The position numbers and the translations under genes were made by a program. DNA of 34,904 nt from an uncultured Deinococcales bacterium (GTDB taxonomy: Bacteria; Deinococcota; Deinococci; Deinococcales; JAAFIG01), in assembly GCA_964244895.1 (NCBI GenBank), contig CAXTKV010000030.1, positions 1 to 34,904 of the forward strand. The letters are read 5' to 3'. Positions 1,192 through 31,903 of the stretch are shown here, piece by piece. Each line of letters opens with the position of its first letter. The stretch's first letter is position 1. Under the pieces are notes generated by a model. That model was not told where the DNA came from and searched no databases. It saw only the letters and a program-made list of their open reading frames with translations.

Positions 1192-1330
1192 ATTGTCCCC
1201 CACGTCACGATAGACCACCGAATCTGAGCGATGGTGATAAAGCTCGTGAACAACGTGGGAACGAGTGCATCCCAAGTCACATACGGCGCGAACTCGAACG
1301 CGAGGCGTTTTCTCGAGGAGGTGAACACAG

Positions 1331-1378
1331 GAGCACCGTCCAGCACGCAAAAAACAGAATACGTGCTGGACGATGCTC
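1331..1378. repeat. REP-like palindrome copy
   Basis: GAGCACCGTCCAGCACG - AT-rich loop - CGTGCTGGACGATGCTC. Confidence 0.9.
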
Positions 1379-1391
1379 TCGAGATTTAGAC

Positions 1392-2852: not shown

Positions 2853-2865
2853 CTTGGCCTCCAAA

Positions 2866-2918
2866 GAACATCGTCCAGCACAACGTTTTTACGACTTCAA
2901 AAATGCGTTCGGGACGGT
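2866..2918. repeat. Degenerate REP-like palindrome copy abutting the RBS of the 2852 gene
   Basis: GAACATCGTCCAGCAC...GCGTTCGGGACGGT. Confidence 0.7.
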
Positions 2919-3044
2919 AGGGGATGATCCTGCACCCGCACGCTTTTCGACCCCTGAAAATTCAACCTCGAGACTTCCGAAGGTGCGGCTTGGCTTCGAG
3001 AAGCGCCCGCATTTCCCGCAACGAAAGCCGCGGGATCGATGTCG

Positions 3045-5309: not shown

Positions 5310-5320
5310 GGTTCCTTCCC

Positions 5321-6862: not shown

Positions 6863-6870
6863 GTGTCGCC

Positions 6871-8646: not shown

Positions 8647-8827
8647 ACAGAACCCCTCCTGGATCACGGATCGCCCACACTTCCTTTCGACCCTACGCAT
8701 TCCGATGCGTGCTTGACGTGAAATAACCGTGAAACCCCGTTATACACACCAGCATCGCGAGCCAAAAACAAATCGAACATTTTTGGTCGGCAAACGAGGA
8801 CGGCTCGAGCGGGATCGAGCCTCGAGA

Positions 8828-13591: not shown

Positions 13592-14029
13592 TCAGTCGCC
13601 GCTGGGGACTCGAGTGGAAGCGAAGCGGGTCGTGTTCCAACCGGTCAATCCGCGCGCGAGAACATAGGCAGCGACGGTCATGGCCGCGAGAACACCGTCT
13701 ACGATGGCGATGGTGGCGGCCTCGGGGACGGCCCCGCCGATCAGCGTTGCGGCGGTGATGGCGCTGGCCAGTTTGTGAAAGATCACCAGCTCCCACACGC
13801 CCACCAAGCGCCGTAACCGGAGGGCCAGCAGCGCGAAGAGTCCCGCGAACACCAAAAATCCGTACATGCGCCACATTTCTGCCAAGACGGTCGTGGGTTT
13901 TGCGGATTGAACGGAACCGATGGCGCCGACGAAAGCGAACATCGCGCCCGACGCGGCGACAAGGAGTAAAACCCTGGCGATCTGGTCTCGAGATTTCAGG
14001 GACAGCAATGCCTCAGTTTGTCGCCTCAT
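13592..14029 (-). CDS. Hypothetical integral membrane protein (~4 TM)
   Basis: AAGGAA RBS; four hydrophobic segments; EMWRMYGFLVFAGLFALLA and WELVIFHK. Confidence 0.7.
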   Translation of the reverse strand: MRRQTEALLSLKSRDQIARVLLLVAASGAMFAFVGAIGSVQSAKPTTVLAEMWRMYGFLVFAGLFALLALRLRRLVGVWELVIFHKLASAITAATLIGGAVPEAATIAIVDGVLAAMTVAAYVLARGLTGWNTTRFASTRVPSGD

Positions 14030-15041: not shown

Positions 15042-15090
15042 CCGGGACGGCATTCTCAGGGCTCAGGAATCACCGTCTGGAACGGTGTTC
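15042..15090. repeat. Degenerate REP-like copy
   Basis: CCGGGACGGCATTC...GAATCACCGTCTGGAACGGTGTTC resembles the 16965 copy. Confidence 0.55.
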
Positions 15091-17657: not shown

Positions 17658-18027
17658 ACGTGGCGCGCGCAGGCTCGCTCGAGGTGTTCGCTCGGGTTTT
17701 TTTCGTGCCCATTTTCGAGGTCTCTGACCCGATCCTCCGGCGACAAAATATGAGCAATCAATGAAGGTAGCTGCTGTACCATCTGAGAGTTTTTGTGGAT
17801 GACGCGAAAAAGCCGCAAACTTGCGCTTTCGATTTTTGCGTCCCTGACAGGCTTTGTGAATTTTTCGATAAAACAGCACGGGAAGCGTAAAAAATTCGTG
17901 CGTCACCTCACATCGTAAAGTCTAACCTCCTGACAAGTACCGGATTCGGCCCCATACCTATATAGGCCGGGCGGTGCGGTCGTTGCGCATTGCGCCACAA
18001 GGCGCGCGCGCACCGGGGGGATGCACT

Positions 18028-19332
18028 ATGCCAAAAATCAGCACCGTCGGATTGGTTCTCTTCTTCGCCCTCGCGCTCGCGGCGTGCAGCACCACGCCGA
18101 CCCCAGGGTCCGCAGGAACGACACCGCCACCCGCCACAGCACCCGCGACCCCAGCAGCCACACTGGGCTTCGTCAACATTCAAGACGGCCAGACGATTCA
18201 GGGCATCCTGACGCAAGCACCGGGCGCGAGCGTCAAGGGCGCGGCAGTATCAAACTTGCGGATCGAACTGTATAGACCCGACGGAAGCCAGTGGTGGACG
18301 CGCGAAGAAAAAGGCGCGCTGTCCTGCCTGACCGGGCTGACCGGCAACGTCTGCAACACCTGGACGACCACCGCCGCGCCCGACAACGAATACCGATTGC
18401 GGGCCGTGGCGACCCTGACCGACGGCTCGAGCCTGAGCGCCGAACTGCGCTTCAAGATTCGAAACCAGAACCTGCCCCCAGCGACCACCCCACCCGCGAC
18501 CACACCGCCCGCCAGCCCATCGAACCGTCCCGCCTGGAACGACGTGCGCTCCTGGATGCGCGAGGATGTCGGCTGCAACCTCAACTCGGTGCTGGCCTCG
18601 AAACTTCAGATGGTCACGATGAGCGTCAAATGCACCGGAAAGTACCTCGAGCGGGCCGACACGGATCAGCTCAAGGCCAGCGGCAAGTGGGTGCTGGCCT
18701 ACGAGGACGTGGCCGTGGCCGCGCCGTGGGACGACCGCGTCTGGCCGTCGATGGTCAACGAAAGCTCGCCCGCCATCAAGTTCAAGACCAGCTGGGGTTC
18801 GTATCTGGCGGACGTGACCAGCGACGCCTGGTTCCGCGCCGTGGAAAAAGTCGTGCGCGACGACCTGGCGCGCGGTTACGACGGCATCTGGCTGGACGAT
18901 TGCGCGGCCTTCTGGTTCGAGGGCGGCCCGACCGACGAGCGGGTATTGAAATACTCGAACATCGTCAAGCGCGTGCGCGCGCTGGTCGATTCGATCCAGC
19001 CCGGCGTCAAACTGATCTGCAACACAGACGCCAACCTGATCATCGGTAGCGTCCAGCGCAGCACGGGCTTCCTGGGGGCGCTGGACGGCATCACCATCGA
19101 AGGGTTCACTTTCCACTGCTTCGCGCCCGGCGATTGCCGCCAGAACGACCCGACCCGACGCGCCGAAGAGGAAAAATGGGCGCTCGAGGCGCAGAAACTC
19201 AGCGCTAAGATCTTCACGCTCGATTACGCCTTCAACGCCGCCGATCAACTGTTGGCCTGGACGGAATCGCGCAAACGCAGCTGGACGCCCGCCGTCAACC
19301 AGGGCAGTACGGTCGGCGTGTACATCGATTAA
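18028..19332 (+). CDS. Lipoprotein with Ig-like domain and GH114/TM1410-like (alpha-1,4-polygalactosaminidase-like) barrel
   Basis: ATG 18028; lipobox LAAC; Pro/Thr linkers; Ig-like WTTTAAPDNEYRLRAVAT; barrel motifs VLAYEDV, RGYDGIWLDD, LICN, LDGITIEG and IFTLDY. Confidence 0.68.
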   Translation: MPKISTVGLVLFFALALAACSTTPTPGSAGTTPPPATAPATPAATLGFVNIQDGQTIQGILTQAPGASVKGAAVSNLRIELYRPDGSQWWTREEKGALSCLTGLTGNVCNTWTTTAAPDNEYRLRAVATLTDGSSLSAELRFKIRNQNLPPATTPPATTPPASPSNRPAWNDVRSWMREDVGCNLNSVLASKLQMVTMSVKCTGKYLERADTDQLKASGKWVLAYEDVAVAAPWDDRVWPSMVNESSPAIKFKTSWGSYLADVTSDAWFRAVEKVVRDDLARGYDGIWLDDCAAFWFEGGPTDERVLKYSNIVKRVRALVDSIQPGVKLICNTDANLIIGSVQRSTGFLGALDGITIEGFTFHCFAPGDCRQNDPTRRAEEEKWALEAQKLSAKIFTLDYAFNAADQLLAWTESRKRSWTPAVNQGSTVGVYID

Positions 19333-19645: not shown

Positions 19646-20806
19646 TCACTTCGCGCCCGAAACATCGAAGGCGTAGACGCGCGACTCGCCCTCGGAAATC
19701 GCCAGGGTTTTGGCCGCCAGATCATTCGGCAGCGTGAAATACACGCGGAATCGGTACTCCTCGCCCGGTTTCAGGCTGCCGTCCGCGTGCTCATCGCGAG
19801 AAGCTTTGATCAGGTAACCGTTGAAGACCTGTTTTTCACCCTCGGCATCGCGCAGTTCGATCTTGAAATTGCCGTAACTGAAGCTGACGGGATTCGCGGT
19901 CGCACCCGTCAGGTTCTTGATGGTCAACGCAGCGATCAGGTAACGCTTGCCATCAGCGGGCGCTTTGCCATCCATCTTGTCCGTCGAGAACGCCGCACCC
20001 TCGAGCTTGATGCCCAGATTGAGGCCCGGATAGAAGGTTCCGGCTTGGGCTGGAACCTCCGGCAACGCGCTCGCGCCGCTCCCGTCGGCGGGGTCAATAA
20101 ACGGCGCGACCAGAGGCTTGACCTTGCCGCGCAGATCGAAGCGCACCACGGGCGCACCATCCTTGGGTTCGAGGATCAATTTGGGAATCTGGCCCGCCGC
20201 CGGAACCGCGAAGGCGGCGTACAGGCTGACCTTCTGCGCGGGCTTGAGGGCCGTGTTGTAGATCTCGGTCGTGCCCTCTCGAGCGACGTAATTGTCGAAG
20301 ACGTGGTTGACATCCTTGGCGTCCACGGCGGTGATCTTGAAGCTGCCGTAATAAACGGTCACATCGCGCTTTTGCGGATTCTGAACGGTGTAATGCAGCA
20401 CCAGGAGCTTCTCGTTGGCCTTCGGCGCGTAGACGTACGTGCCCATCGTCACGGGCGAGAGGCTGTACTCGAGGCTCGTCAAGGTGAAGTTGAGCGCGTT
20501 GTCCGCCTTGCCCAGCGCGTACGTCTTGCCGATCGCGCCTTCGCCGCCCGCCAGTTGCGCGGTTCCTTGCAGGTCGGCGGGTGCAGTGCCGCTCGAGACG
20601 ATCACGAAACTTCTCCTGGCCGCGTCAAAGGTCACGCTCGCGCCCAGCGCCTTGGCGAAGCTTTGCGCTTCGACGTAGACCTTGCCGCTTTTCTCGAGCG
20701 CGTCCAGTTTGGCGGGCTTGCCGTTGATGGTGAAGCTGTAGGTCGCCTGGGCCAGCGCGAGGCCGAGCAAGGCGAGCAGACCGATGAGGGCGTACCGTTT
20801 GTTCAT
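19646..20806 (-). CDS. Secreted protein: copper-amine-oxidase-N-like domain plus two DUF4352-like Ig domains
   Basis: ATG 20806 with GGGAGGT RBS; signal peptide; KVYVEAQSFAKALGASVTFD. Internal repeat: LLVLHYTVQN...LKPAQKVSLYAAFAVP versus YLIAALTIKN...LKPGEEYRFRVYFTLP. Confidence 0.7.
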   Translation of the reverse strand: MNKRYALIGLLALLGLALAQATYSFTINGKPAKLDALEKSGKVYVEAQSFAKALGASVTFDAARRSFVIVSSGTAPADLQGTAQLAGGEGAIGKTYALGKADNALNFTLTSLEYSLSPVTMGTYVYAPKANEKLLVLHYTVQNPQKRDVTVYYGSFKITAVDAKDVNHVFDNYVAREGTTEIYNTALKPAQKVSLYAAFAVPAAGQIPKLILEPKDGAPVVRFDLRGKVKPLVAPFIDPADGSGASALPEVPAQAGTFYPGLNLGIKLEGAAFSTDKMDGKAPADGKRYLIAALTIKNLTGATANPVSFSYGNFKIELRDAEGEKQVFNGYLIKASRDEHADGSLKPGEEYRFRVYFTLPNDLAAKTLAISEGESRVYAFDVSGAK

Positions 20807-20848
20807 AGTGACCTCCCGAAGTGAAAGACTCGAACTTAGATTACTCGA

Positions 20849-20896
20849 GAACACCGTGCTGAACGCGAACGAGAGAGTCTGCTCCGAACGGCGTTC
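20849..20896. repeat. Degenerate REP-like copy
   Basis: GAACACCGTGCTGAACGC...CCGAACGGCGTTC. Confidence 0.6.
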
Positions 20897-20935
20897 CGGT
20901 GACGCGAAGTCCGCAACTGCGGATTGACGCGACCA

Positions 20936-22621
20936 TCAGCAGAGGGGCTTGATGATGTCTTCTTTTGGAAAGCTCGGCGGTACGGGCTTGAATTGGGGTG
21001 ACGATGGGGCGAAAGGAAGCGGTAGAGGCAAGGAATTGCCGTTTCCGGCATCCGGCGCGTAATCAAAATACCAATCGCTGACCACGGTGGCCTTGACGGG
21101 TTTGCTCGGGCCGCTCGGCAGACTGTCCGGCAAGTGGACATCCAGGTACGACGTGTCCGTTCCCGTGATCCGATCTGGCCCCTGGGGTTTGACGGTTCCC
21201 TGCCCTTTGACCTCTCCGTAGATCCAAGCGGTGTCCTCACCGCTGTCGTTGGTATCAGATGGCTTGTCGCCGCAGTCATTGGTCTGATGGACGGTCAGGG
21301 TGTAGGTGCCTTTCAGTTGCAAGAAGATGGTGTCATCAAACTGGTACGCCCCTGAAGCTGTGATGTTCACAAAACCTGTCGTCATGGCCTCCTGTATGGT
21401 GATGGGTGGAGCGGCAGCGGTGAACTCGTAGGTGGTTTCGGTCTTGATTTTCCCCGGCTTCGGTGTGCAGATGCAGTCCTCGTAGGTGGTGCGGGTGTAC
21501 TTGATGGACAACGTACCGGTGCCGCCGGGATCGAGCTTCGGGTTAAACCTGATGCTGCCGTCGTAGTTGGTGTTCGGGCCAAACGAGAACGGCGCGCGGA
21601 CGAGGAAGATTTCCGCGTCGAATTTGGCTTTCATGGCGCCGTTGATTCGCAACGAACTGGAACCGCCCGAAGGCAGACTGCGGTCTTCGTTGTGCGTCAC
21701 GTCGGCGTAAACGTTGAACCAGCCCTTTGAATCCTCGACGCGCACCCTCGAGGTCAGCGTCACCGTCTTTCCAGCGTCGTTGACGGTCGCGCTGACCCGC
21801 ACCGGGTTGGGACTGGGCGCGGCGGCGGGCGCTTTGAAAATGCGCTGCGCGTTGCTGCCCGCATCCAGCAGTTGTCCCGCGCTGGCGTTCCAGGACTGGG
21901 CGGGCACCTGGGTGACATTGAACGGGAAGTACCCGGTGGTCGAATCGGGGCTCGAGGGAGCAAATTTCAGTATGGTCATCAAGAGTTTGTCGTTGATCCG
22001 GACGGAAGCACTGGCGGGGTTCAGCTTGTAGAAGGTGGCGACCGCGTAATCTCCGGCTTTTTTGAGTTTGGCCGTGATTTTCGTACCGCTCCCCTGAGGA
22101 CGGATACCGGACTGGACCGCGGGAAGCGGCGCACTTTGTGCGTCGGGACTGCCCTGCCATGCACCACCAGCGCCCTGGTACGCGACCGTCAGGTTTTCCG
22201 AAGTGACATCGTTATCGGTCAGTTCCGTATCGGGTAGCGTGAACTCGAGCTTGAGGGGCTGAGCCAGCGCCGCGTCCTGCTGAGTGATCGCGTCTTTCAG
22301 CGTGACGCGGTAGCCCAAACCTAGCCCACTGGGCATTTTGTTTTCGATCAGTTGAACGCCGACGTTGGTGCTACTCGCCAGCGCACCGGGCGGCACGACC
22401 AACGCCAGCCGCCCATCCTGACTGGTGACTGAACCTCCGTTCTGATCAATCACCACGGGTGCGAGATCACCGACAGGGTTGCCCACTGCCGTCGTCGCGG
22501 TCGGTAACGGGTTCGCAATCGGATCGGGGTTCACGCCGCCACCCCCGCCCCCGCCATTGTTCTGGTTACCGCATCCAGTCATCAGTAACACGGTCAGCGC
22601 GAATATCGCTTTATGGTTCAT
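20936..22621 (-). CDS. Lipoprotein with ZU5-like N-terminal domain (paralog of 23847-25277)
   Basis: GGAGGA RBS best spaced to ATG 22621; lipobox LMTGC; NGGSVTSQDGRLALVVPPGAL. Confidence 0.75.
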   Translation of the reverse strand: MNHKAIFALTVLLMTGCGNQNNGGGGGGGVNPDPIANPLPTATTAVGNPVGDLAPVVIDQNGGSVTSQDGRLALVVPPGALASSTNVGVQLIENKMPSGLGLGYRVTLKDAITQQDAALAQPLKLEFTLPDTELTDNDVTSENLTVAYQGAGGAWQGSPDAQSAPLPAVQSGIRPQGSGTKITAKLKKAGDYAVATFYKLNPASASVRINDKLLMTILKFAPSSPDSTTGYFPFNVTQVPAQSWNASAGQLLDAGSNAQRIFKAPAAAPSPNPVRVSATVNDAGKTVTLTSRVRVEDSKGWFNVYADVTHNEDRSLPSGGSSSLRINGAMKAKFDAEIFLVRAPFSFGPNTNYDGSIRFNPKLDPGGTGTLSIKYTRTTYEDCICTPKPGKIKTETTYEFTAAAPPITIQEAMTTGFVNITASGAYQFDDTIFLQLKGTYTLTVHQTNDCGDKPSDTNDSGEDTAWIYGEVKGQGTVKPQGPDRITGTDTSYLDVHLPDSLPSGPSKPVKATVVSDWYFDYAPDAGNGNSLPLPLPFAPSSPQFKPVPPSFPKEDIIKPLC

Positions 22622-22704
22622 GCCCATTCCTCCACGGCGGTTCCCTCGAGACTCGCTTTAGGCGTTGGTTTCCTCGAACCCCCAGCGTTTACTTGTCCCA
22701 GCGT

Positions 22705-23640
22705 TTACTGGCTGAAACTCAGCCCGATTTGCATCATCGGTGTGCCCGCGCAGGTGAGGGCCGCGCCCGAACGATCACCCGCGAATTTGCCGATTGCAGA
22801 CTCCGCGTATGGGTTGTTCTTGCCGTCGTCCAGGTTCACAAAAACCTTGTAGAGCGTGGGATCGTTCGGGAATTGAATGGCCGCGAAGACCTGATACTTG
22901 CCCAGTGGAATCCCGTTCAGTTCTGGGGTGCTCGAGGTCTGGTAGCGTTGCCCCCAAGGAATTTGAATCAACACGTCCTTGCCTTGAGAACCGTCGATCA
23001 GTGGTGCGATGGGTTTCAACACGATGCTCAAGACCGCCTCGGGCGGCGCTGAAACCGTGTCGTTGAGGTTCGGCGAAAGCCACAGACTGCCGCCGTAATA
23101 CTGCCGATTCCCAGGTTTGGAGTCGGGGCGTTCACCGCTGACGCGCCAAACCAGATTTTGGACGGCACCGTCTTTGCTGGCGAACGAGGTTGAACCGTCG
23201 GAGGGTCGCACCCACAGGCAGTAATCCGTGCCCTCATAGGTCGTGGCGACCTCGCCGATGGCTTGAAACACCGAGGCGTTCGCCGAGGGGGGCGGCAAGT
23301 TCTGAGCGTAAAAGCCGTCCGCTTTGGGAACGACCGTGAACGGCGTGTCCGTGGTGGACGCAAAAGCGTTGCGCACGATCACTCGAGCGCCGGGAATGGG
23401 TTGTCCGCAGGCGTTGACAAAATAGCCTTTGACCTTCTGGGCTTCGGGGGTCAACTGGTTTGGCGTTGGATTGTCGCAGCTTCCGGTGACTGGCGGCGGC
23501 GTGCTCGGACTGGGCGGTGGCGGCGTGCTGGAACCTGGCGGTTGTGGCGTTCCGCCACCTGGGCAGGATGCCAAGCCCACCACCAACGCCAGCGCCATAC
23601 CGAGCACCCGCAGCCTCGAGTTCACCCGTGATCGCAACAT
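22705..23640 (-). CDS. Lipoprotein with carboxypeptidase-regulatory-like beta sandwich
   Basis: ATG 23640 with AAGGAG RBS; lipobox LASC; Pro linker; VKGYFVNACGQPIPGARVIV. Confidence 0.75.
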   Translation of the reverse strand: MLRSRVNSRLRVLGMALALVVGLASCPGGGTPQPPGSSTPPPPSPSTPPPVTGSCDNPTPNQLTPEAQKVKGYFVNACGQPIPGARVIVRNAFASTTDTPFTVVPKADGFYAQNLPPPSANASVFQAIGEVATTYEGTDYCLWVRPSDGSTSFASKDGAVQNLVWRVSGERPDSKPGNRQYYGGSLWLSPNLNDTVSAPPEAVLSIVLKPIAPLIDGSQGKDVLIQIPWGQRYQTSSTPELNGIPLGKYQVFAAIQFPNDPTLYKVFVNLDDGKNNPYAESAIGKFAGDRSGAALTCAGTPMMQIGLSFSQ

Positions 23641-23666
23641 TCTCGCTCCTTTCGCATCTGGTGCGG

Positions 23667-23714
23667 AGCCTAAAAAAGGAGGCGTGACTGGGGCGTGACT
23701 GGGGCGTGACTGGG
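23667..23714 (-). promoter_or_regulatory. Promoter with triple 11-bp direct repeat (putative SARP operator)
   Basis: Minus strand (CCCAGTCACGC)x3 at 23682-23714, then 9 nt, then -10 TAGGCT at 23667-23672. Confidence 0.8.
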
Positions 23715-23783
23715 ACTCGGCCTCACAACCAGCGATCTGATTTCCGTGATCCAGACCTGGTTCGCGTCTTCCCAGATTGAAGC

Positions 23784-23835
23784 ACACCGTCCTGCACGCA
23801 TGCTCGAGAACACCGTGCAGAACGGTGTTCTCGAG
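23784..23835. repeat. Nested REP-like copy
   Basis: ACACCGTCCTGCACG pairs with CGTGCAGAACGGTGT; alternatively CTCGAGAACACCGT / ACGGTGTTCTCGAG. Confidence 0.8.
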
Positions 23836-23846
23836 ATCTCAGCGTC

Positions 23847-25277
23847 TCATTGCGCCTTGAAATTCCAGTCGGCGGTGGTGGTGTTGAACTGGCACGCCCA
23901 CGTACCCGAACTCGTCAGCAGCGCGATGTCCGCGTACTTCGGCGCGTCGGGCAGGGTCGGCACTTCGGGGCAGGCCGTGAATGCCGTGAAAATGACTGCA
24001 ACCTGCGTGGGTGTGGGCGGGTTGCCACATTGCACGGTCACGACCACGTTCGCGCCCTGAGTCAGTGCGAACCAGTACTTGCTGGCGAAGGTATCCCCTG
24101 GCCCGCTACGCACCGGATCGAAGACGATCATCGTGCCGTTCACAGGCACGCTGCTAGTAGCGGGCGTGCATTCCGGGTAGTTCGTGGTGGCCTGCACCGA
24201 CCCCGAAGCCTCGTACTTGTTGAGGTCGCCAGGAAGGTGTTCGACCAGGTTCCAGGTCAGGTTGCCCTGACCGCTGTAGCTGATGTTGCTCACGTTGGAG
24301 CCATTGAAGTTCAGCGATCCGGTGTACGTCTGGATCACGTCGTCGGTGATCTTGACGCTGGCCTTGAGGGTTACGCTGTCCAGGGTGTCCGTGTTGATGC
24401 TCTGGAAGGTTACGGTCACAGTATCCGGGCTGGGTTTCTTGTCGGGCGCGGTGTAGGTTGCGCCGCTCGAGCTGGATCTGCTGATCGTGCCGACCGTGCC
24501 GTTGCCGCCAAACGCGCCATTGACATACCAGTTACGTGCAAAGCCGTCCTTGTCGTTGGTGAAGGGGTACTCGCGCGTCACCTGACGAAGCGGGCAGAGC
24601 GGCGCGAGACCTTCGGGATCGTTCGGGTCAGGTGCGCCGCAGTTGGGGTCTTTTTTCTCGTTCTGGATGACCTGAGCGTATGGGGTGAAGCTCTTCGTGC
24701 CCTTGACCTTAACGGTAGCGCTCGAGGGCTTGAGGTAAAAGCGTTTGAACTTGACGACGCTCCTGAGGTTCAAGCCCGCTTGGGCACGCAGGCCAGGGGT
24801 TCCGAGCGCGGCAGACAGCCCCGCCGTGACCGTACCTGCCGCCGTGTCCACCTTGACCGGATCGAGCGAGCGCCACGATCCATCCGCCTGCTGTACCGCC
24901 AATCCCAGACCCTCGGGTGCGTCGTCGCCTGGGTCGATCGGGAAGGTGATCTTGGCGTAGTTGCTCCAGGCCACATCGCTCGAGATGGCGATGCCCTGAC
25001 CCACACCATTCAGCGTGTCAGTGATCGGTTGCAGCGTGACGTTGGCGCTCGAGACCGTGCCTGACAGCACCTCGAGCTTGATGCCGCCCGCCGCGATCGT
25101 GCCACCCGTCGCGGTGACGGTTTGCGTGACGGGACTGCCGACGTTCGTGCCGACGGGTGTGGTCAAGGGCGGTGGCGGTGGGGGTGGCGGCGCAGGTGGT
25201 ACAGGAACCGTATTGCCGCCGCACGCACCGAGGGTGATAGCCAGCCAAATAATTCCGAGGGTTTGGATGCGCTTCAT
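23847..25277 (-). CDS. Lipoprotein, paralog of 20936-22621
   Basis: True start ATG 25277 (AGGAGG RBS), not 26384; lipobox LGAC; poly-Pro linker; shared blocks such as LAVQQADGSW / VAYQGAGGAW and YTAPDKKPSP / FKAPAAAPSP. Confidence 0.78.
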   Translation of the reverse strand: MKRIQTLGIIWLAITLGACGGNTVPVPPAPPPPPPPPLTTPVGTNVGSPVTQTVTATGGTIAAGGIKLEVLSGTVSSANVTLQPITDTLNGVGQGIAISSDVAWSNYAKITFPIDPGDDAPEGLGLAVQQADGSWRSLDPVKVDTAAGTVTAGLSAALGTPGLRAQAGLNLRSVVKFKRFYLKPSSATVKVKGTKSFTPYAQVIQNEKKDPNCGAPDPNDPEGLAPLCPLRQVTREYPFTNDKDGFARNWYVNGAFGGNGTVGTISRSSSSGATYTAPDKKPSPDTVTVTFQSINTDTLDSVTLKASVKITDDVIQTYTGSLNFNGSNVSNISYSGQGNLTWNLVEHLPGDLNKYEASGSVQATTNYPECTPATSSVPVNGTMIVFDPVRSGPGDTFASKYWFALTQGANVVVTVQCGNPPTPTQVAVIFTAFTACPEVPTLPDAPKYADIALLTSSGTWACQFNTTTADWNFKAQ

Positions 25278-25293
25278 GCCTTCCTCCTGAAAA

Positions 25294-25341
25294 GAACACC
25301 GTCCAGCACGCATTCTCGAGTTCGTGTCCTGGACGGGGTTC
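25294..25341. repeat. REP-like palindrome copy abutting an RBS
   Basis: GAACACCGTCCAGCACG...GTGTCCTGGACGGGGTTC. Confidence 0.85.
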
Positions 25342-25399
25342 CGAAAATGGTTGCCCTGGGATTCGGGGGGATGAAATCCTCGGGCGGGACGCGGCGGGT

Positions 25400-28087
25400 T
25401 TACTTGGTGACCGAGATCGTCGCGCCCGAAATGGGCAGGCCGGAAACCGGGATGGTCGCGTTGCTCGAGTCCTTCAGGCTGACCGCGGTGATCGTAACCT
25501 GGTAGGTGCGCGTCGTACCAACGGGCGTGACCGTGACCGGGCAAGCGGTCAGGGTCGCGGCCAGACCCATCAGCGCGACGATCACCAGACGCCGTCTGGA
25601 GCGCCAGCCGAGCAGCAGCGCCAGCGCCGCCGATCCGAGCGCCGCCTTGAGCGGCATGCCCGCGATGCTCGAGTTCAGATCGAGCGTCACCAGCAGCCTC
25701 GAGGTCGAGTTCGCGGTCAGGGCTTTTGGCGCGGTCAGGGTCAGTGTGGCCGCGCCATCGTTGGCGTTGAAGGTTCCCTGCGCCAGCGCGGTTTCCCCGG
25801 CATCCACCGCACCGTTGCTGTTGGCGTCCAAGTACAGCCTGACGCCGGTGATGTCCAGTTGATCGTTGCCCGTGCCGGACGCGCTCAGGCTCACGGATTG
25901 CAGCGTGCCCGCGCTCGAGCCGAGGCTCAGATCGACGCCCAGCGCGGCGTTGTTGCTCGAGCCTTTGATGGCGGTGGCGGTGGAAGGCGTGTTGCTCGAC
26001 TTGGATGCGCTGGCGGTCGCGCCCGCTGGCGGAGGCGGTGGCGTGACGCCAGAGGCGGTAAAGGTTGCAGTCACGGATTTTGCGCCGCTCATCGTGACGC
26101 TGCACGCGCCCGTCCCGCTGCACGCGCCCGACCAGCCCGCGAAGGTGGAGGCTGCGTCCGGCGTGGCCGTCAGGCTGACGCTGCTGCCCTGCGCGAAGTT
26201 CGCCGTGCAGGTCGCACCGCAGTTGATGCCGCCCGGATTGCTGCTGACCCCGCCCGTGCCCGTGCCGGATTTCGTGACCGTCAGGGCAACATTCGTGCCG
26301 CCGACGGGGACGGTATTGAAGGTCGCCGTGACGGATTTGGCGGCGCTCATCGTGAGCGTGCAGGTCGTGACGGAACCGCTGCACGCGCCGCCCCAGCTTG
26401 CGAAGCTCGAGCCTGCGGCGGGTGTCGCGGTCAGCGTGACGGTGGCGTTCTGGTTGAAATTCGCCGTGCAGCTCGCGCCGCAGTCAATCCCGGCGGGGTT
26501 GCTGCTGACCGCGCCCGTGCCCGTTCCAGCCTTCGTCACCGAGAGCGGGAAGGTCGGGGTGGAGCTGAGGGTGTAGACCACACCGACAGTCACCGTCGCG
26601 CCGAAGCTGACGTTGGCGGTCTGAGATGCGGCGTTCGGCGCGTAGACGCTCGAGCCGACCGTGACGTTCGGTGCGGTGACCGTGTACGTTCCGACCGTCA
26701 CATCGCTCAGGTTCTGGCCCGTGCCCGTCAGGATCGTGCGGGTGGTGTTGAACCCGCCCGGCCCCGCGATGCCCAGCGCGGCGCTGGAACCCGACGGCAA
26801 GCCCGTCACCTCGAGCGACAACGAGCCGACCTGCGGCACGGTATTGAAGCTCGCGGTCACGGATTGAGCGGCGTTCATCGTCACGTTGCACGCGCCCGCG
26901 CCGCTGCACGCGCCACCCCAGCCCGCGAAGCTCGAGCCGCTGGCGGGCACCGCGGTCAAGGCCACGTTCGTGCCGGACGTGAAATTGGCGCTGCACGCCG
27001 CACCACAATTGATTCCGGCAGGTGCGCTGCTGACCGTACCCGAACCCGCGCCGTTCTTGGTCACGCCGAGCGCGAAATTCTGCGCTGCGCCCGTGCTGAA
27101 GGTTCCGGTGCTCGAATAGAACGTGCCCTTGCTGGTGACGTACTTGAAGCGGTACGAGTACGACGTGCCTGGGTTCAACCCGCTCAGCGCGATGCTGGCT
27201 GGCTGCGATTCGTTGTTCCCCGAGATCGTGCTGCTGGCTGAAGTCAGCCCGAAGCTGGCGGTCGTACCGTAATCCACGGACAGCAGACCGCCCTGGAAAT
27301 AGCTGTAGAGCGTCGTGGATACGGTCACGCCAGTCCCGGAGGGCGCACCTGCGCTCGGTGCAGCCAGCAGGGCGCGGTACGGCACGTTGATCCAGGTAGA
27401 GGCGTAAGCGGGGTCGGGGCTCAACCCCGCCGTGTCGAAGATGAACTGAACCTTATCGCCACCGTTGGGGCCAGCCGCCCCGAGCAATTCCTTGGAGAAA
27501 CGAACCGGGACTTGAATCTCGAGCCAGCTCGATCTGGGGAAGTACTGAAGGCCGAGCGCGATACCGCCGTAGGTTCCACTCGGGCCAATTTGGAAAGGCG
27601 TACCGACGCCGCCGCCCTGGCCGTCTGGGCAGATCGGGCCAACCCTCAACCCCGTTCCCTGAGTGCTGATGACGCCGATCTGAGTCCCGGTGAATGGCGT
27701 GAACGCCTGGTTGTTGATCTTGTAAAAGCACTTGACCGGAGTTTGGGCGGTGATGTTCAGGCTCGCACCGGGCGGCAACACCAGCGATGGCACGAAACCC
27801 ACGCTCGAGTCGGGGTTGCAGTTCAATCCCGGTACGGTCATCAGCACGTCCACGTAGGTGCCATCCCCCGTCAATGGCGCGCTCAGATCGGTGTAGCGCA
27901 AGTAAGATGCCGTCCCCGTCAGCATCGTTTCCGTATACGGCTGCCCGAGGATCGAGCAGTTCGTGCCGGTCATGTTGGTGGTCACGCCGGACACGATCTC
28001 CAATGATTGCGCTCCGACCCAATTGCTCAGGGCAAAACTCGCGCTCACGACCAGCGTCAGCAGGTTCCACGTGGCTCTGGGATTCAT
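25400..28087 (-). CDS. Exported surface protein with three divergent InlB B-repeat-like domains, an FN3-like domain and an internal TM-hairpin/lipobox
   Basis: ATG 28087 with GAGGAGGA RBS; signal peptide; 3x VTKxGxG(T/S)GxVSSxPxGIxCG..C...F...WxGACSG...C..TM..A.SVTA.F; LSGLNPGTSYSYR; C-terminal LLLGWRSRRR...AATLTAC. Confidence 0.82.
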   Translation of the reverse strand: MNPRATWNLLTLVVSASFALSNWVGAQSLEIVSGVTTNMTGTNCSILGQPYTETMLTGTASYLRYTDLSAPLTGDGTYVDVLMTVPGLNCNPDSSVGFVPSLVLPPGASLNITAQTPVKCFYKINNQAFTPFTGTQIGVISTQGTGLRVGPICPDGQGGGVGTPFQIGPSGTYGGIALGLQYFPRSSWLEIQVPVRFSKELLGAAGPNGGDKVQFIFDTAGLSPDPAYASTWINVPYRALLAAPSAGAPSGTGVTVSTTLYSYFQGGLLSVDYGTTASFGLTSASSTISGNNESQPASIALSGLNPGTSYSYRFKYVTSKGTFYSSTGTFSTGAAQNFALGVTKNGAGSGTVSSAPAGINCGAACSANFTSGTNVALTAVPASGSSFAGWGGACSGAGACNVTMNAAQSVTASFNTVPQVGSLSLEVTGLPSGSSAALGIAGPGGFNTTRTILTGTGQNLSDVTVGTYTVTAPNVTVGSSVYAPNAASQTANVSFGATVTVGVVYTLSSTPTFPLSVTKAGTGTGAVSSNPAGIDCGASCTANFNQNATVTLTATPAAGSSFASWGGACSGSVTTCTLTMSAAKSVTATFNTVPVGGTNVALTVTKSGTGTGGVSSNPGGINCGATCTANFAQGSSVSLTATPDAASTFAGWSGACSGTGACSVTMSGAKSVTATFTASGVTPPPPPAGATASASKSSNTPSTATAIKGSSNNAALGVDLSLGSSAGTLQSVSLSASGTGNDQLDITGVRLYLDANSNGAVDAGETALAQGTFNANDGAATLTLTAPKALTANSTSRLLVTLDLNSSIAGMPLKAALGSAALALLLGWRSRRRLVIVALMGLAATLTACPVTVTPVGTTRTYQVTITAVSLKDSSNATIPVSGLPISGATISVTK

Positions 28088-28116
28088 TCGTTCCTCCTCG
28101 GGTGGTTCTGGGATGG

Positions 28117-28320
28117 TCAGTCGGATGGGGGCGGTTCGTCGGGGTCGAAGGGCCAGTTCAGATCGAATTCCTGAAGAAACTGCGACAGGGCTTGAGGGTC
28201 GGTAAAGTAGCGTCTTCGCTTGCTCTGCGGGTTGAGAACGCTGGCGCGCCACGCGCCCGAGCCGTCGGCTCGGGGTTCGAGCCACAGCCGCACCACGAAG
28301 ACCTGAGCGGTCGCGTTCAC
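28117..28320 (-). CDS. Small conserved-looking protein (67 aa; VRLW...WRASV...RYF...L..FL)
   Basis: GTG start. The motif pattern resembles small proteins I recall next to BTAD/ATPase regulators in Chloroflexota and Deinococcota (from memory, not searched). First gene after the operator. Confidence 0.7.
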   Translation of the reverse strand: MNATAQVFVVRLWLEPRADGSGAWRASVLNPQSKRRRYFTDPQALSQFLQEFDLNWPFDPDEPPPSD

Positions 28321-28373
28321 TCGGGCGTCCTGGGGGGTTGTCGCGCGGAATCTGGGCGCACCGTGGCTGGCAT
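28317..28373 (-). other. Leaderless 18-aa uORF (MPATVRPDSARQPPRTPE*) whose TGA overlaps the GTG of the 67-aa gene
   Basis: TAACCT, 6 nt, then ATG 28373; GTGA overlap at 28317-28320. Confidence 0.5.
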
Positions 28374-28379
28374 GTCCGA

Positions 28380-28422
28380 AGGTTATTCAGCCGTGCGTGA
28401 CTGGAGCGTGACTGGGCGTGAC
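28380..28422 (-). promoter_or_regulatory. Promoter with triple GTCACGC direct repeat (putative SARP operator)
   Basis: Plus-strand GCGTGAC at 28395, 28406 and 28416 (11 and 10 bp periods), then 9 nt, then -10 TAACCT at 28380-28385. Confidence 0.8.
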
Positions 28423-28425
28423 CAT

Positions 28426-28487
28426 AAAAAGAGCACCGTCCTGGACGGTGCTCTTGAACATCAAATTCGTTCGTCCGGGACGGTGTT
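28426..28487. repeat. REP-like copy, probably also the terminator of the BTAD regulator gene
   Basis: AAGAGCACCGTCC-T-GGACGGTGCTCTT perfect palindrome (28429-28455) followed by a T-run on the minus strand; extra right arm at 28472-28487. Confidence 0.8.
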
Positions 28488-28498
28488 TTGAGGGGCGC

Positions 28499-31400
28499 TC
28501 AGCCCAGCCCGATCCCCAGATCGGCGGCAGCTTCGAGCATCTGGCGGTTGACGGGGTTGCGGTTCAGGAACGATTCTCGAAATTCTGCCGGGACGTGATG
28601 ATCCGCCGTCGAGAGCACCCACTCAAGGGCGCGCTCGAGGGCGGTTCGGGCCGCAGGATCGCCGAGAGCCGAGAGCACCCGATAGCGCACCAGAAGCACA
28701 TTGCCCCGGTAGGCCAGTTCCGGCGTGACCCCTGGGAGCGCTTCGACGGCCAGCGCGCTGGGTTCGAGCGCCCGCTCGGGTTGACCGAGCGCCAGGTGCG
28801 CCTGGGCGCAACGAAGTCGGGCCGCCATGACGCCTCCATCGCTTCCCCGGCTCGAGAAGGCCTCGAGGCAGCGCTCGGCCAGCCGCAAGCCCTCCTCGGG
28901 CTCGAGCAGCGGGCTCTTGACGAGGAACAACCTGAAAAGCGCCAGGGGACGAGAGACGGTCTGAAGTAACGCTTCGGCCTCCAAGATCGGTTCGAGGGCG
29001 CGCGAAGCGGGGTTGATGCGGCTCTGCGCGATCAAAGCGTGGACTCGGCTGCCCGCGCGCAGGTTCGGCAAGGCCAGCAGTTCATCGATCGCGGGTTGCG
29101 CGCGATCGATGATTCCGAGGTCGGGGTAGATCTCGAACTGGCGCTGAAGAAGATAAGGCCGCACCCACGACTGGTACGTCTCGAGCAAGCGTTTGAGGGT
29201 TCCGAGCGAATCCAGGGCTTCCGTGTAACGCCCGAGCTGGTGCAGCATGGCGCTGGCATTGACCACCATGTGGATGGCCACGTCGGTATCCTCGCCGATC
29301 TCGGCGTGCAGGGTCTCAGCTTCGCGAATCAACCAGAGCGCTTCCTCGTGGTGACCGATGCTGGACAGACCCGCAGCCAGGTTCAGGCGCACGTGGACGC
29401 GCGCCTGCGGATCGGCTAGCTTCCCATCACTGTGCAGGTTCTCGAACAGCACCAGGGCGCGTCGGTCGTGTTCGAGCGCCTTGTGGAACTCGTCCTTGCG
29501 TTCCACGAGCACACCCAGATCGCTTTCCAAACCCGCCAGCGCTTCCTTGTCCTCGAGCCGTTCGGCCATGATTCTGGATTCGTGCGAGAGCGCGATCAGG
29601 TCGTCGGTTCGTCCGCCCTGAACGTAGATGGCGTGAATCAAGGCGCTCTGCGCGCGGAAGCTCAGGCGTTCGTGCTGCGCCAGGCGCGCGTACTCGAGCG
29701 CCTGGCGGGCGGCTGCCTCGGCCTGCGTCCCCTCTCCGCGCAGGTGCAGCCGTTCCGCGCGGCGCGTCCAGGCGGCGGCGGTTTCTTCAGGGGTTCCAGC
29801 CAGGCGCATCAGGTGTTCGACGAGGGCTTCGCAGCGTTCCGCGGTGTCCACCCGGCAGAGCGCCGCGAAACCCTGCTCGAAAGCCGCAAACGCCTCGCGT
29901 GGACGGTTCAACAGCTCAAAATTTCGGCCCGCCAGCTCCAGCAGGTCGGCCTCGGCGCGCAACTCGAAGGTCGCGTGGGCGCGCCGCGCGGCCTCCATCA
30001 GGAACGGCGCGGCGCGTGCGGGATCGGAAGCCCCGAGCCAGTGCGCCGCGATCCGGGCTGGCTGCGCGTCTGCACCTTCGAGGTATTCGGCGGTGCGGCG
30101 GTGCAAGAGCGCGCGGATCGGTGCGGGCACGCTCGCCAGGGCGGCTTCAGCCAGCAGATCGTGCGCGAAGTTTGCGGCGCGCATGACCTGCGCGGCCTCG
30201 AGTTCCGCCCACGGTTCGGCCAGATCCAGAATGGGGGTTTCCAGCACGCGCGCGCCCAACTCGAGATCGAAATCCGCGCCGGCCACCGCGACCGAGCGCG
30301 CCAGGCGTTGCGCCGCCAGCGAGAGCCGCTCGAGGCGTCGAGCCACCAGCAACCCGAGCCGATCCGGCACGGGCAGGCGCGCGGGCAGGCCGCGTTCCAG
30401 ATCGCCGGATTCGATCAGGCTGCGCAGCGTTTCCAGCGCGAACAACGGGTTGCCGCCCGTGTGACGCTCGAGGCTGGCGGCCAGTTCGGGCGCGTGTCGC
30501 AACGAGAGGCTCTCCAGAAGCGCCTTCAGGGCTTCGGGCTCGAGCCGTTCGACCTCGATGGGCGCGGCCACGCCAGCCTGGATGCTCTGATGAACGATCG
30601 CTTCGAATTCGGGTCGCAGTTCGCCGGAACGGTAAATCGAGATGCAGACGACCCGACCGCTTTCGGGCTTCGAGAACCTGGCCGCCAGGTACTGCGCGGC
30701 CTCGAAGCTGGCGGCGTCCATGTATTGCAGATCGTCGATCACGATGCTGCGCAGTCCGCCCCCGATCAACCGCTCGATGGCGCTGGCCATGGCCTCGAAG
30801 AAGCGCAGGCGTTCCGCGTCGGAGGTGATCGGCGGCGGCGCGTCGGCGTGCAAGCTGGGCACCAGCCTGGAGAGTTCCCGGCTCGCCCACGGCTCGAGGC
30901 GCAGCTCGGGATGCCGACCGAGGGTGTTGCGCAGGCTGCGCGCGAAGGTCGAGTACGGCAGGCTTTCGTCGCCGGGGCGACCCTCGATCACGGCGTATTC
31001 GCCTTTGGTGCCCACGAATTCCTGCACCAACCGGGTCTTGCCGACGCCCGGTTCACCGCTGACGCTGATGCCCAGACCCGCGTCCCAGGCGGACTCGAGC
31101 TTCGCCCAGACAGCCCCGCGTCCGACCAGCACGGGCGGGCGTTGCACCGAGAGCGGAATCTCGCGGCGGGTGGGCGGCGCGCTTTCGGTGACGCGCGCGC
31201 CGCCTTCGATCTGGGTGGCCAGCGCCAGCGTTTCCGGCATCGGCGCAACGTTCAACTCGTGCATCAGCACGGCCCGGCAGCGCTCGAAGGCGCTCAATGC
31301 CGCACCCCGGTCGCCCAGCAGGTAGTGCAGGCGCATCACGCGGCGGTGGGCGGATTCTGAAACCGGGTCGGTTTCCAGCAGCCGTTCAGCGTGCACCAGG

Positions 31401-31903
31401 GCGGCGCGGTAATCGCCCGCGCGCTCGCTGGCCTCGATCAACCGAGCGCGCGCCTCTCGGCGCAGGCCGTAAATGCGTTCGCGTTGCACCAGCAACCAGT
31501 CCATGAATTCCTGGCAGTCGTCGAACTCGTAACCGCCCAGCAGTTCACCCTCGCGCTCGATCACGGCGGCATCGCGTCCTGCGAAAGCCTCGAGTTCGAG
31601 TTGCGCGGCGTCCACGCTGACCTCCGACGCGAGCGCCAGCGGGTCGTCGCCCGCGATCAATTCCGCGCCCGCAGCGTCGCGCGAGCGCCTGAGCATCTGG
31701 CGCAAGTTGTTGCGCGCGGTGGATTCTGGCGATTCCGGCCAGAGCAATCCCGCCAGCGTGGTGCGCGACGTTGCGCCCTCGAGCGCCAGGTAAGCCAGCG
31801 CGCCCGCCGTCTTGCGCTCGAGCCGCCAGGGCTCGCGCTCGCTCCTGATGAGCTTCGCACCGCCCAGAAGTTCGAGCGCGATGGTGGTCGAGGAGAGCGT
31901 CAT
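28499..31903 (-). CDS. SARP/BTAD transcriptional activator with STAND-type ATPase and TPR-like C-terminus (AfsR/large-SARP-like)
   Basis: N-terminal wHTH (LAYLALEG..SRTTLAGLLWPE...ARNNLRQ); BTAD (DPVSESAHRRVMRLHYLLGDRGAAL); Walker A GEPGVGKT; Walker B IVIDD; GGNPLF; helical repeats. A -10 TAGAAT lies at 31915-31920. Confidence 0.9.
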   Translation of the reverse strand: MTLSSTTIALELLGGAKLIRSEREPWRLERKTAGALAYLALEGATSRTTLAGLLWPESPESTARNNLRQMLRRSRDAAGAELIAGDDPLALASEVSVDAAQLELEAFAGRDAAVIEREGELLGGYEFDDCQEFMDWLLVQRERIYGLRREARARLIEASERAGDYRAALVHAERLLETDPVSESAHRRVMRLHYLLGDRGAALSAFERCRAVLMHELNVAPMPETLALATQIEGGARVTESAPPTRREIPLSVQRPPVLVGRGAVWAKLESAWDAGLGISVSGEPGVGKTRLVQEFVGTKGEYAVIEGRPGDESLPYSTFARSLRNTLGRHPELRLEPWASRELSRLVPSLHADAPPPITSDAERLRFFEAMASAIERLIGGGLRSIVIDDLQYMDAASFEAAQYLAARFSKPESGRVVCISIYRSGELRPEFEAIVHQSIQAGVAAPIEVERLEPEALKALLESLSLRHAPELAASLERHTGGNPLFALETLRSLIESGDLERGLPARLPVPDRLGLLVARRLERLSLAAQRLARSVAVAGADFDLELGARVLETPILDLAEPWAELEAAQVMRAANFAHDLLAEAALASVPAPIRALLHRRTAEYLEGADAQPARIAAHWLGASDPARAAPFLMEAARRAHATFELRAEADLLELAGRNFELLNRPREAFAAFEQGFAALCRVDTAERCEALVEHLMRLAGTPEETAAAWTRRAERLHLRGEGTQAEAAARQALEYARLAQHERLSFRAQSALIHAIYVQGGRTDDLIALSHESRIMAERLEDKEALAGLESDLGVLVERKDEFHKALEHDRRALVLFENLHSDGKLADPQARVHVRLNLAAGLSSIGHHEEALWLIREAETLHAEIGEDTDVAIHMVVNASAMLHQLGRYTEALDSLGTLKRLLETYQSWVRPYLLQRQFEIYPDLGIIDRAQPAIDELLALPNLRAGSRVHALIAQSRINPASRALEPILEAEALLQTVSRPLALFRLFLVKSPLLEPEEGLRLAERCLEAFSSRGSDGGVMAARLRCAQAHLALGQPERALEPSALAVEALPGVTPELAYRGNVLLVRYRVLSALGDPAARTALERALEWVLSTADHHVPAEFRESFLNRNPVNRQMLEAAADLGIGLG

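Follow-up and report, generated by a model that had tools for sequence, protein, structure and literature searches.

The SARP-type regulator and the genes behind it

We analysed a 34,904-nucleotide stretch of DNA from an uncultured Deinococcales bacterium (assembly GCA_964244895.1, contig CAXTKV010000030.1), hereafter called the window. It contains a gene for a large regulator of the SARP (Streptomyces antibiotic regulatory protein) type, six co-oriented genes behind it, and two boxes of GTCACGC repeats. This arrangement had been proposed in an earlier reading of the letters alone (the sequence-only reading). The elements are listed below.

28499 to 31903, minus strand: SARP-type regulator, 1134 amino acids (aa), with a winged helix-turn-helix (wHTH) and BTAD domain at ~1–235, an ATPase of the STAND class (signal transduction ATPases that have numerous domains) and a tetratricopeptide repeat (TPR) superhelix at ~630–1128
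28429 to 28455, minus strand: hairpin and T run 3' of the regulator stop codon; a 12-pair stem with a T tail, a copy of the CACCGT..ACGGTG palindrome, predicted to be a terminator that insulates promoter 1
28380 to 28422, minus strand: box 1; GTCACGC at 28422–28416, 28412–28406 and 28401–28395 (periods 10 and 11), nine nucleotides (N9), then the −10 hexamer TAACCT at 28385–28380
28317 to 28373, minus strand: leaderless upstream open reading frame (ORF) of 18 codons; begins at the predicted +1, and its stop codon overlaps the GTG of the small gene (GTGA)
28117 to 28320, minus strand: SARP-companion protein, 67 aa, modelled as three strands and a helix; conserved R11, W13, E15, W24, R25, F39 and L45; no Pfam family
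25400 to 28087, minus strand: InlB-repeat exported protein, 895 aa; signal peptide, weak fn3 match, three divergent InlB B-repeats (PF18998, 7.8e-25)
23847 to 25277, minus strand: lipoprotein, 476 aa (LGAC); same family as the 563-aa lipoprotein by clustering
23667 to 23710, minus strand: box 2; GTCACGC at 23710–23704, 23699–23693 and 23688–23682 (periods 11 and 11), N9, then the −10 hexamer TAGGCT at 23672–23667
22705 to 23640, minus strand: lipoprotein, 311 aa (LASC); weak CarboxypepD_reg-like match (PF13620, E 0.001, below the cut-off)
20936 to 22627, minus strand: lipoprotein, 563 aa (LMTGC); ZU5-like by language-model features
19646 to 20806, minus strand: secreted protein, 386 aa; two DUF4352 domains (PF11611, 1.8e-12)

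The proposed order wHTH-BTAD-ATPase-TPR of the regulator was found. Pfam matches to BTAD (9.5e-14) and AAA_16 (5.9e-15) were above the cut-off, and TPR_12 matched weakly. No Pfam match to NB-ARC was obtained at E 0.01, the ATPase scoring as AAA_16/AAA_22, and an NCBIfam scan at the same E value gave no match, the AfsR model NF053617 included. Single-sequence phmmer searches of the PDB found designed TPR proteins only, and the relatives were reached with profiles. A profile of 38 N-terminal domains matched EmbR (2fez, E 5.6e-16) and AfsR (8hvr, E 3.8e-15) over positions 3–226/236, and the full-length profile matched AfsR 8k60 (E 3.5e-33). The structure model had a mean confidence (pLDDT) of 91.8, and its best fold match was the STAND-TPR protein 6mfv. 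The ATPase carries Walker A (GEPGVGKT, 283–290), Walker B (IVIDD, ~387–391), GxP (484–486) and an FAHD latch (579–582); Walker A, Walker B, GxP and F-x-HD vary little or not at all among 46 homologues.

The regulator has the N-terminal OmpR-type wHTH and BTAD domain of large SARPs, together with their STAND NTPase and C-terminal TPR region. Its boxes are heptamer direct repeats with an 11-bp period over the −35 position, as placed from hexamer spacing. It fits the definition of a large SARP given in PMC10972967 but is no AfsR orthologue. Its neighbours in the window are exported proteins, a GntR protein, pyridoxal phosphate enzymes and a lipoprotein resembling glycoside hydrolase (GH) family 114, which bears out the proposed absence of a biosynthetic gene cluster.

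Operator boxes and promoter geometry

We scanned the 5.1-Mb genome (91% complete) for the heptamer and its repeats. Contigs of this genome (G000) have C numbers, and related loci have L numbers. The single heptamer is frequent, with 1,760 copies; the window contains 21 against 10.9 expected, a mild enrichment reached by 3 of 100 shuffles. Exact triplets occur twice in the genome, both at this locus, and all four terminal exact doublets are followed by N9 and TAnnnT. Thus, the scan that the sequence-only reading had proposed as a check came out in its favour. When one mismatch per heptamer was allowed, five sites were found: box 1, box 2, one immediately 3' of each of the two nearest paralogues of the regulator, on C134 and C206, and one at C27 that faces a regulator with a C-terminal SARP domain. 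A dedicated two-operon regulon confined to this locus was therefore ruled out. At L004 (G000 C27:30181-30208), an exact GTCACGC doublet precedes the gene for a small SMR-like membrane protein; opposite it lies a STAND regulator whose SARP domain is C-terminal.

The register was evaluated with doublets of the wider heptamer family. In the own genome, TAnnnT stood at N9 in 8 of 68 doublets, at N8 in 3, and at any other offset in at most 1. We also used 60 small-gene loci, each from a different genome and drawn from the head of a list of 106 genomes with a match. TAnnnT was at N9 in 49 of their 133 doublets with an 11-bp period and in at most 2 at any other offset; doublets with periods of 9, 10, 12 and 13 gave none (0/295). 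Chance origin of the repeats was ruled out by the genome-wide triplet counts and these fixed-register and period tests. The conserved operator unit is the doublet at 11-bp period, and the third repeat is not a conserved part. Of the two matching operators that had been proposed, the positions, the triple GTCACGC and the N9-TAnnnT spacing stand; the first spacing of box 1 is 10 rather than 11. For the PimR operator, two heptamers are described as the minimum and three as the optimum (PMC5930380).

No sigma-70 consensus promoter was found at either box site. In D. deserti, a −10-like motif is reported to precede 94% of start sites, a conserved −35 was not found (PMC4007540), and the hexamer mostly begins 12 nt before the start site (PMC4007540 Table S5). 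Both TAACCT and TAGGCT are present at mapped start sites in the part of that table that was available. From this spacing, transcription behind box 1 is predicted to start at 28373, and 5' ends would be expected near 28373 (box 1) and 23659–23660 (box 2). With the hexamer at −12 as in D. deserti, the heptamers would fall at −39 to −33 and −28 to −22, on the AfsR footprint; AfsR binds 11-bp repeats at −40 to −30 and −29 to −19, contacting the first 8 bp of each (PMC10936776).

Of 13 boxes that stand immediately before a small gene, 6 have a start codon 6–7 nt 3' of the hexamer; the same holds in the window, as expected for leaderless transcripts. Upstream ORFs of 13–18 codons that open at the predicted +1 and whose stop overlaps the small-gene start were found in the window, L136 and L144, and the small gene itself is leaderless in L133, L139, L141 and L142. 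Translational coupling between the upstream ORF at 28317–28373 and the small gene is possible from this overlap.

A palindromic intergenic repeat, CACCGT-N5-7-ACGGTG, occurs in 295 copies in the genome (related half-sites, >1,000) and in the window at 15071, 23811 and 28434. It often lies just before the boxes and produces false ORF starts.

Paralogous modules, the companion protein and the predicted exported targets

Homologues of the regulator were detected at E <= 1e-60 in 26 of the 41 genomes searched, including all 18 of its own family. A related-locus search with the regulator as sole query gave no relative among 239 candidates. A box was present within the locus in 30 of 46 full-length homologues, and a GTnACGC-type box in 13 of 15 members of the window's clade. 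A metagenome search with the operator DNA only gave 12 loci, of which four (L158/L159/L160/L162) are one lineage and two (L153/L155) a second. A homologous regulator was found in 8 of them, ending 8–82 nt before the box in 7 and 2.9 kb upstream in 1. Three others had <1 kb of upstream DNA; the last had no regulator within 6 kb but encoded a 41% identical homologue of the 563-aa lipoprotein. Across related loci, the regulator, the box, the small gene and the exported genes stay linked, as had been claimed.

The source genome contains 36 SARP-domain genes. The three closest paralogues, including that of the window, each have a box 97–145 nt 3' of the stop codon, and none of the other 33 has the same heptamer at that position. 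The regulator is therefore one of several paralogous modules per genome, and cross-talk is likely because three close paralogues each have the same box behind them. Two more modules in this genome use other heptamers. On C213 (~3900–6300, minus strand), two GGAACGC boxes, a paralogue of the small gene and lipoproteins lie behind a regulator fragment, mirroring the window. On C41 (~3559, minus strand), a CCTACGC/CTTACGC box precedes a possible remote paralogue of the small gene.

We compared the recognition helix of the regulators with their heptamers. Arg68 occurs mostly with CG at heptamer positions 5–6, and Ala or Val at 68 with T[CG] in L102/L103 (sister to the Arg-bearing L086), L115, L019 and L015. 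Ser accompanies ATCAYGG, and other helices accompany CTAACGC, CTAGACG and GCAACGC. Two named plasmids from cultured carriers, pTHEOS01 of Thermus oshimai JL-2 and pDAETH-2 of Deinococcus aetherius, agree with this pattern; the best plasmid matches were from Deinococcus and Thermus, with 55–56% identity. Helix and heptamer appear to diverge together, imperfectly, across interchangeable modules.

These results bear on which protein reads the boxes. The three paralogues have the heptamer and an Arg-Gln helix start in common, the window helix deviates at positions 74 and 76, and the regulator opposite the C27 box has a different architecture. The main reader of the boxes could be the C134 or C206 paralogue, acting in trans, or all three paralogues could share this role, the adjacent regulator being redundant or weakened. 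We consider this unlikely, as the window gene is intact with all its ATPase motifs, each paralogue keeps a box right behind it, and changes of helix type tend to go with changes of box type from locus to locus. The 1134-aa regulator is likely to bind the GTCACGC repeats.

The family of the 67-aa protein comprises 2,377 clusters at 50% identity. No Pfam family was common to 133 of its members, and the nearest Atlas clusters were hypothetical proteins of Chloroflexota (0.87–0.88). It was found in 106 of 251 genomes of the phylum and in four copies in its own genome. The structure was modelled as three strands and a helix with a pLDDT of 81. Fold searches gave no match at Z >= 5 or E <= 0.001. 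The best matches were weak (Z 3.8–3.9, E 0.3–1.3) and included the methyl-CpG-binding domain (MBD) 7fef (Z 3.8, root-mean-square deviation 1.8 over 41 residues). No fusions within longer proteins were found, which is weak evidence. Tandem two-domain forms occur in Anaerolineae-type sequences (P0033, P0062, P0084, P0096, P0148; L145), suggesting that the small protein may act as a pair.

In 39 of the 60 loci, a SARP gene lay within ~7 kb of the small gene, and in 25 of them it was within 600 bp; for random points in the own, SARP-rich genome, the corresponding shares are 8.7% and 0.9%. A box was located within 130 nt upstream of the small gene in 13 loci, against 2 for the opposite strand, and within 5 kb in 35, against 6 for the opposite strand. 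In Chloroflexota, all eight small-gene loci contained a SARP gene, mostly divergent and within ~1.2 kb in seven, and four had a doublet-N9-TAnnnT box before the small gene. The SARP neighbour lacks the ATPase in L131, L134 and L143 and has a beta-propeller instead in L145, L147 and L148. Because the small gene adjoins SARP forms without an ATPase or with a propeller, its constant partner, judged from gene neighbourhood, is the SARP domain and not the STAND ATPase. In L141 and L142, a TGGAAGC box precedes the small gene, which is followed directly by a nitrate-reductase-like operon (a label from sequence reading), and there is no SARP gene within ~7 kb.

The small gene is both target and companion, which suggests feedback. 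We tentatively regard its product as a feedback modulator of the SARP domain or the promoter complex, most likely an inhibitor; this is the weakest step of the model, and we give it somewhat less than an even chance. The small protein might instead be a DNA-binding co-regulator with an MBD/AP2-like sheet. Its three strands and helix, the recurrence of methyl-CpG-binding domains among the weak fold matches, and the conserved Arg and Trp on the strands point in this direction. However, the topology is common and no fold match was significant, and a further conserved DNA motif next to the boxes was not apparent, no systematic search having been made; we find a DNA-binding role doubtful.

In other genomes, homologues of each of the window's five exported genes lie behind boxes, and the five proteins have the export signals that had been claimed. 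The 895-aa protein has 12 homologues under boxes, and its C-terminus is a conserved membrane hairpin with an internal lipobox-like LTAC. This C-terminal module (25400–25990) consists of a hydrophobic helix, W-R-x-R, a second hydrophobic helix with LTAC/LAAC/LVSC, and a beta-rich tail of ~45 aa. In an alignment made by eye, all 14 proteins had it, with the cysteine motif altered in 2; it was noted in the window and in L086, L093-L104 and L046. The region occurs in 19 of 151 genomes of the phylum and has no Pfam match. It is possibly an undescribed C-terminal lipid anchor.

Homologues of the 476-aa, 311-aa and 563-aa lipoproteins are each found under boxes. A paralogue of the 476-aa lipoprotein on C207 adjoins a paralogue of the small gene. 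The top Atlas matches of the 563-aa lipoprotein (0.93) carry ZU5 on 11–41% of members, which is a lead, and the 476-aa lipoprotein may be called ZU5-like by association with it. Homologues of the DUF4352 protein with 45% identity lie under boxes in L137 and L116, where their genes stand in first to third place. In the window, this gene has no box of its own and is preceded by a 129-nt gap with a weak hairpin; it is probably the last gene of unit 2, so that the claimed composition of the two units holds with this one member probable. A GH114-like lipoprotein gene (17974–19332) converges on the DUF4352 gene. Positions 1–8700 (minus strand) hold a cluster of exported glycan-active proteins: GH10, a DUF4874/DUF4832 lipoprotein, a GH9-CBM3 lipoprotein, a lipoprotein without annotation and one more exported protein.

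Among 77 first ORFs behind boxes, 51 were called exported by a crude rule (37 by lipobox and 14 by signal peptide). Domains in 50 scanned target representatives were Ig, fn3, PKD, DUF11, InlB B-repeats, RCC1/FG-GAP/DUF5122 propellers, CarboxypepD_reg and subtilase; 22 had no family, and a few were cytoplasmic enzymes or a transporter. Outside the phylum, targets in L153, L158 and L159 have PEP-CTERM-like tails (Pfam match just below the cut-off), and L156 has an RHS/YD-repeat lipoprotein under a box. Anaerolineae targets share a C-terminal YLPLV tail, a putative sorting signal.

Adhesion or the building of a surface matrix fits these targets best. The cell-surface apparatus of the sequence-only reading is supported in this respect, and its suggestion of antagonism has little support. 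A defence or antagonism module, in which detection of an invader by an NLR-like sensor would trigger toxins or a remodelling of the surface, would suit the STAND-TPR architecture, the presence of Avs3 among the fold matches, the many diverging paralogues, the RHS/YD-repeat protein of L156 and the ZU5-like lipoproteins. Nevertheless, we think it improbable, as neither the window targets nor the 50 scanned representatives showed a toxin, nuclease or immunity domain, PADLOC not having been searched.

Two boxes precede short exported ORFs for Cys-containing peptides, in L035 (45 aa, 3987–4121) and L039 (47 aa, 13883–14023). Each peptide has two cysteines, and apparently decayed copies lie behind boxes in L040 and L046. 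The input signal could be a short peptide that is exported, taken up again and bound by the TPR helix, as in RRNPP-like quorum sensing, which would be compatible with activation by the regulator. A search with the family profile gave matches to RapF and other TPR receptors at E ~5e-14, alongside many of a generic TPR kind. On the other hand, the intergenic gaps of the window contain no short exported peptide ORF, the 91%-complete genome has no homologue of either peptide (best tblastn E 0.46), and these two were the only convincing cases among the loci walked. We regard a peptide signal as rather unlikely.

Proposed regulation and comparison with known systems

Taken together, the two promoters are probably under AfsR-type SARP regulation with an output at the cell surface, to which we assign a probability of about 80%. 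By analogy with AfsR, the STAND-TPR part at rest would keep the SARP domain inactive via the FAHD latch, and a cytoplasmic ligand on the TPR helix together with ATP would free it. By the same analogy, SARP domains, two or three of them bound next to each other at about −39 to −33 and −28 to −22, would replace the missing −35 and recruit RNA polymerase. Promoter 1 would yield the 67-aa companion and two exported proteins, and promoter 2 two lipoproteins and probably the DUF4352 protein, so that adhesin- or matrix-like proteins would be displayed on the surface. The small protein would be an early product of promoter 1; it accompanies SARP domains whatever their sensor. The ligand-driven oligomerisation of the sequence-only reading is not assured. 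ATP activates AfsR, whose inducer is not known, without altering its oligomer state or DNA binding (PMC10936776), and oligomerisation should therefore not be assumed.

Several points weigh against this interpretation. The evidence consists of sequences and models; binding, start sites and expression are predicted. No box was seen in 16 of 46 regulator homologues, and 21 of 60 small genes had no SARP gene within ~7 kb. No export signal was found in 26 of 77 first ORFs, which include small genes, miscalled starts and real enzymes; the enzymes behind boxes are an FAD oxidase, a cupin, an O-methyltransferase and the nitrate-reductase-like operon of L141/L142. The export rule was applied without a background control. 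The heptamer class of the register test was written from boxes already seen, only the offset and period being independent. The loci counted are kin, several metagenome matches being near-identical (L158/159/160/162; L153/155). The helix-heptamer correlation was made by inspection, kin share labels, and there are exceptions (L123, L014, and Arg68 also with GTCACAG); the window helix, LRQMLRRSRD, is off the family consensus at the two positions 74 and 76.

A mutant of GSU1771, a SARP-family protein from outside the actinobacteria (Geobacter), is reported to make thicker biofilms (PMC10599522), so that activation is not universal. Repression of the two promoters by the regulator would agree with this phenotype. 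It is nonetheless very improbable here, as the boxes occupy the activating position of AfsR and, with no sigma-70 consensus promoter at either site, there would be little basal activity to repress.

A broader proposal, to which we incline less than to its opposite, is a cross-phylum modular system. NLR-like or other sensors would be mounted on SARP activators that each have a heptamer code of their own and a dedicated microprotein modulator, and would control interchangeable cassettes of surface proteins. If this is true, the export routes would be host-specific, with lipoproteins in Deinococcota, YLPLV-tailed proteins in Anaerolineae and PEP-CTERM proteins elsewhere; SARPs outside Streptomyces would mainly rebuild the cell surface on cue, and thousands of microproteins would be an unrecognised brake. 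At the locus itself, sequence is enough to read the targets, the operator and part of a helix-to-heptamer code, in a non-actinobacterial phylum with cultured carriers, and a large Pfam-less microprotein family gains a defined partner domain. The activator of bacterial STAND-TPR transcription factors and the way SARPs are turned off become testable, and orthogonal SARP-box pairs could be inducible parts for thermophiles.

The proposed non-actinobacterial SARP regulon is supported by the conserved linkage and by a geometry equal to that of the AfsR box. The SARP mechanism is known; the cross-phylum surface-protein regulon and the unnamed partner family are undescribed. Our literature search, whose coverage left most subscription papers and the supplements of the AfsR preprint outside, gave no description of this operator, regulon or small-protein family. 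The available part of PMC8195603 does not mention BTAD or SARP, and a term search of that of PMC11301090 found no promoter motifs. A 2024 review states that SARPs are "exclusively found in actinobacteria" (PMC10972967). GSU1771, Deide_19260 (D. deserti) and DR0724 likewise have a SARP domain outside Actinomycetota, and GSU1771 affects biofilm. GSU1771 and Deide_19260 lack STAND-TPR and are response regulators of the receiver-SARP type, and the published descriptions, as far as available, give no operator of this kind or partner protein for any of the three. In these sources, earlier non-actinobacterial SARP-domain proteins differ in architecture or have no known targets.

MalT delivers its output through a C-terminal LuxR helix; unlike MalT, the regulator has its output in the N-terminal SARP domain. 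The order of a STAND ATPase and then a TPR sensor is the same in MalT-like STAND-TPR proteins (6mfv; MalT and GutR cited in PMC10936776). The operators of the SARP-LAL proteins PimR, SanG and PolR and of DnrI and ActII-ORF4 are likewise described with two or three heptamers and 4-nt (sometimes 3-nt) spacers (PMC5930380, PMC10972967). They differ in the heptamer and belong to pathway-specific antibiotic regulators, and the PimR operator has no −35 overlap.

The closest counterpart is AfsR-afsS of Streptomyces coelicolor (PMC10936776, PMC10972967, bioRxiv 10.64898/2026.09.02.748808). It is described with the same order of SARP, nucleotide-binding oligomerisation domain (NOD) and TPR, an F/Y-HD activation latch that corresponds to FAHD here, the same 11-bp direct repeats at an equal distance from the start site, and an adjacent small gene as direct target; likewise, no biosynthetic cluster is needed. 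According to the 2026 preprint, 58% of AfsR-like proteins are "ectopic" and targets are unknown for most (bioRxiv 10.64898/2026.09.02.748808). Unlike AfsR, the regulator belongs to a Deinococcota host, its ATPase scores as AAA_16 and not NB-ARC, and it has no NCBIfam AfsR match. Its targets are exported proteins, and its genome has many paralogous modules. The small protein here is a predicted folded three-strand domain and is set apart by description from AfsS, which is described as sigma-factor-like.

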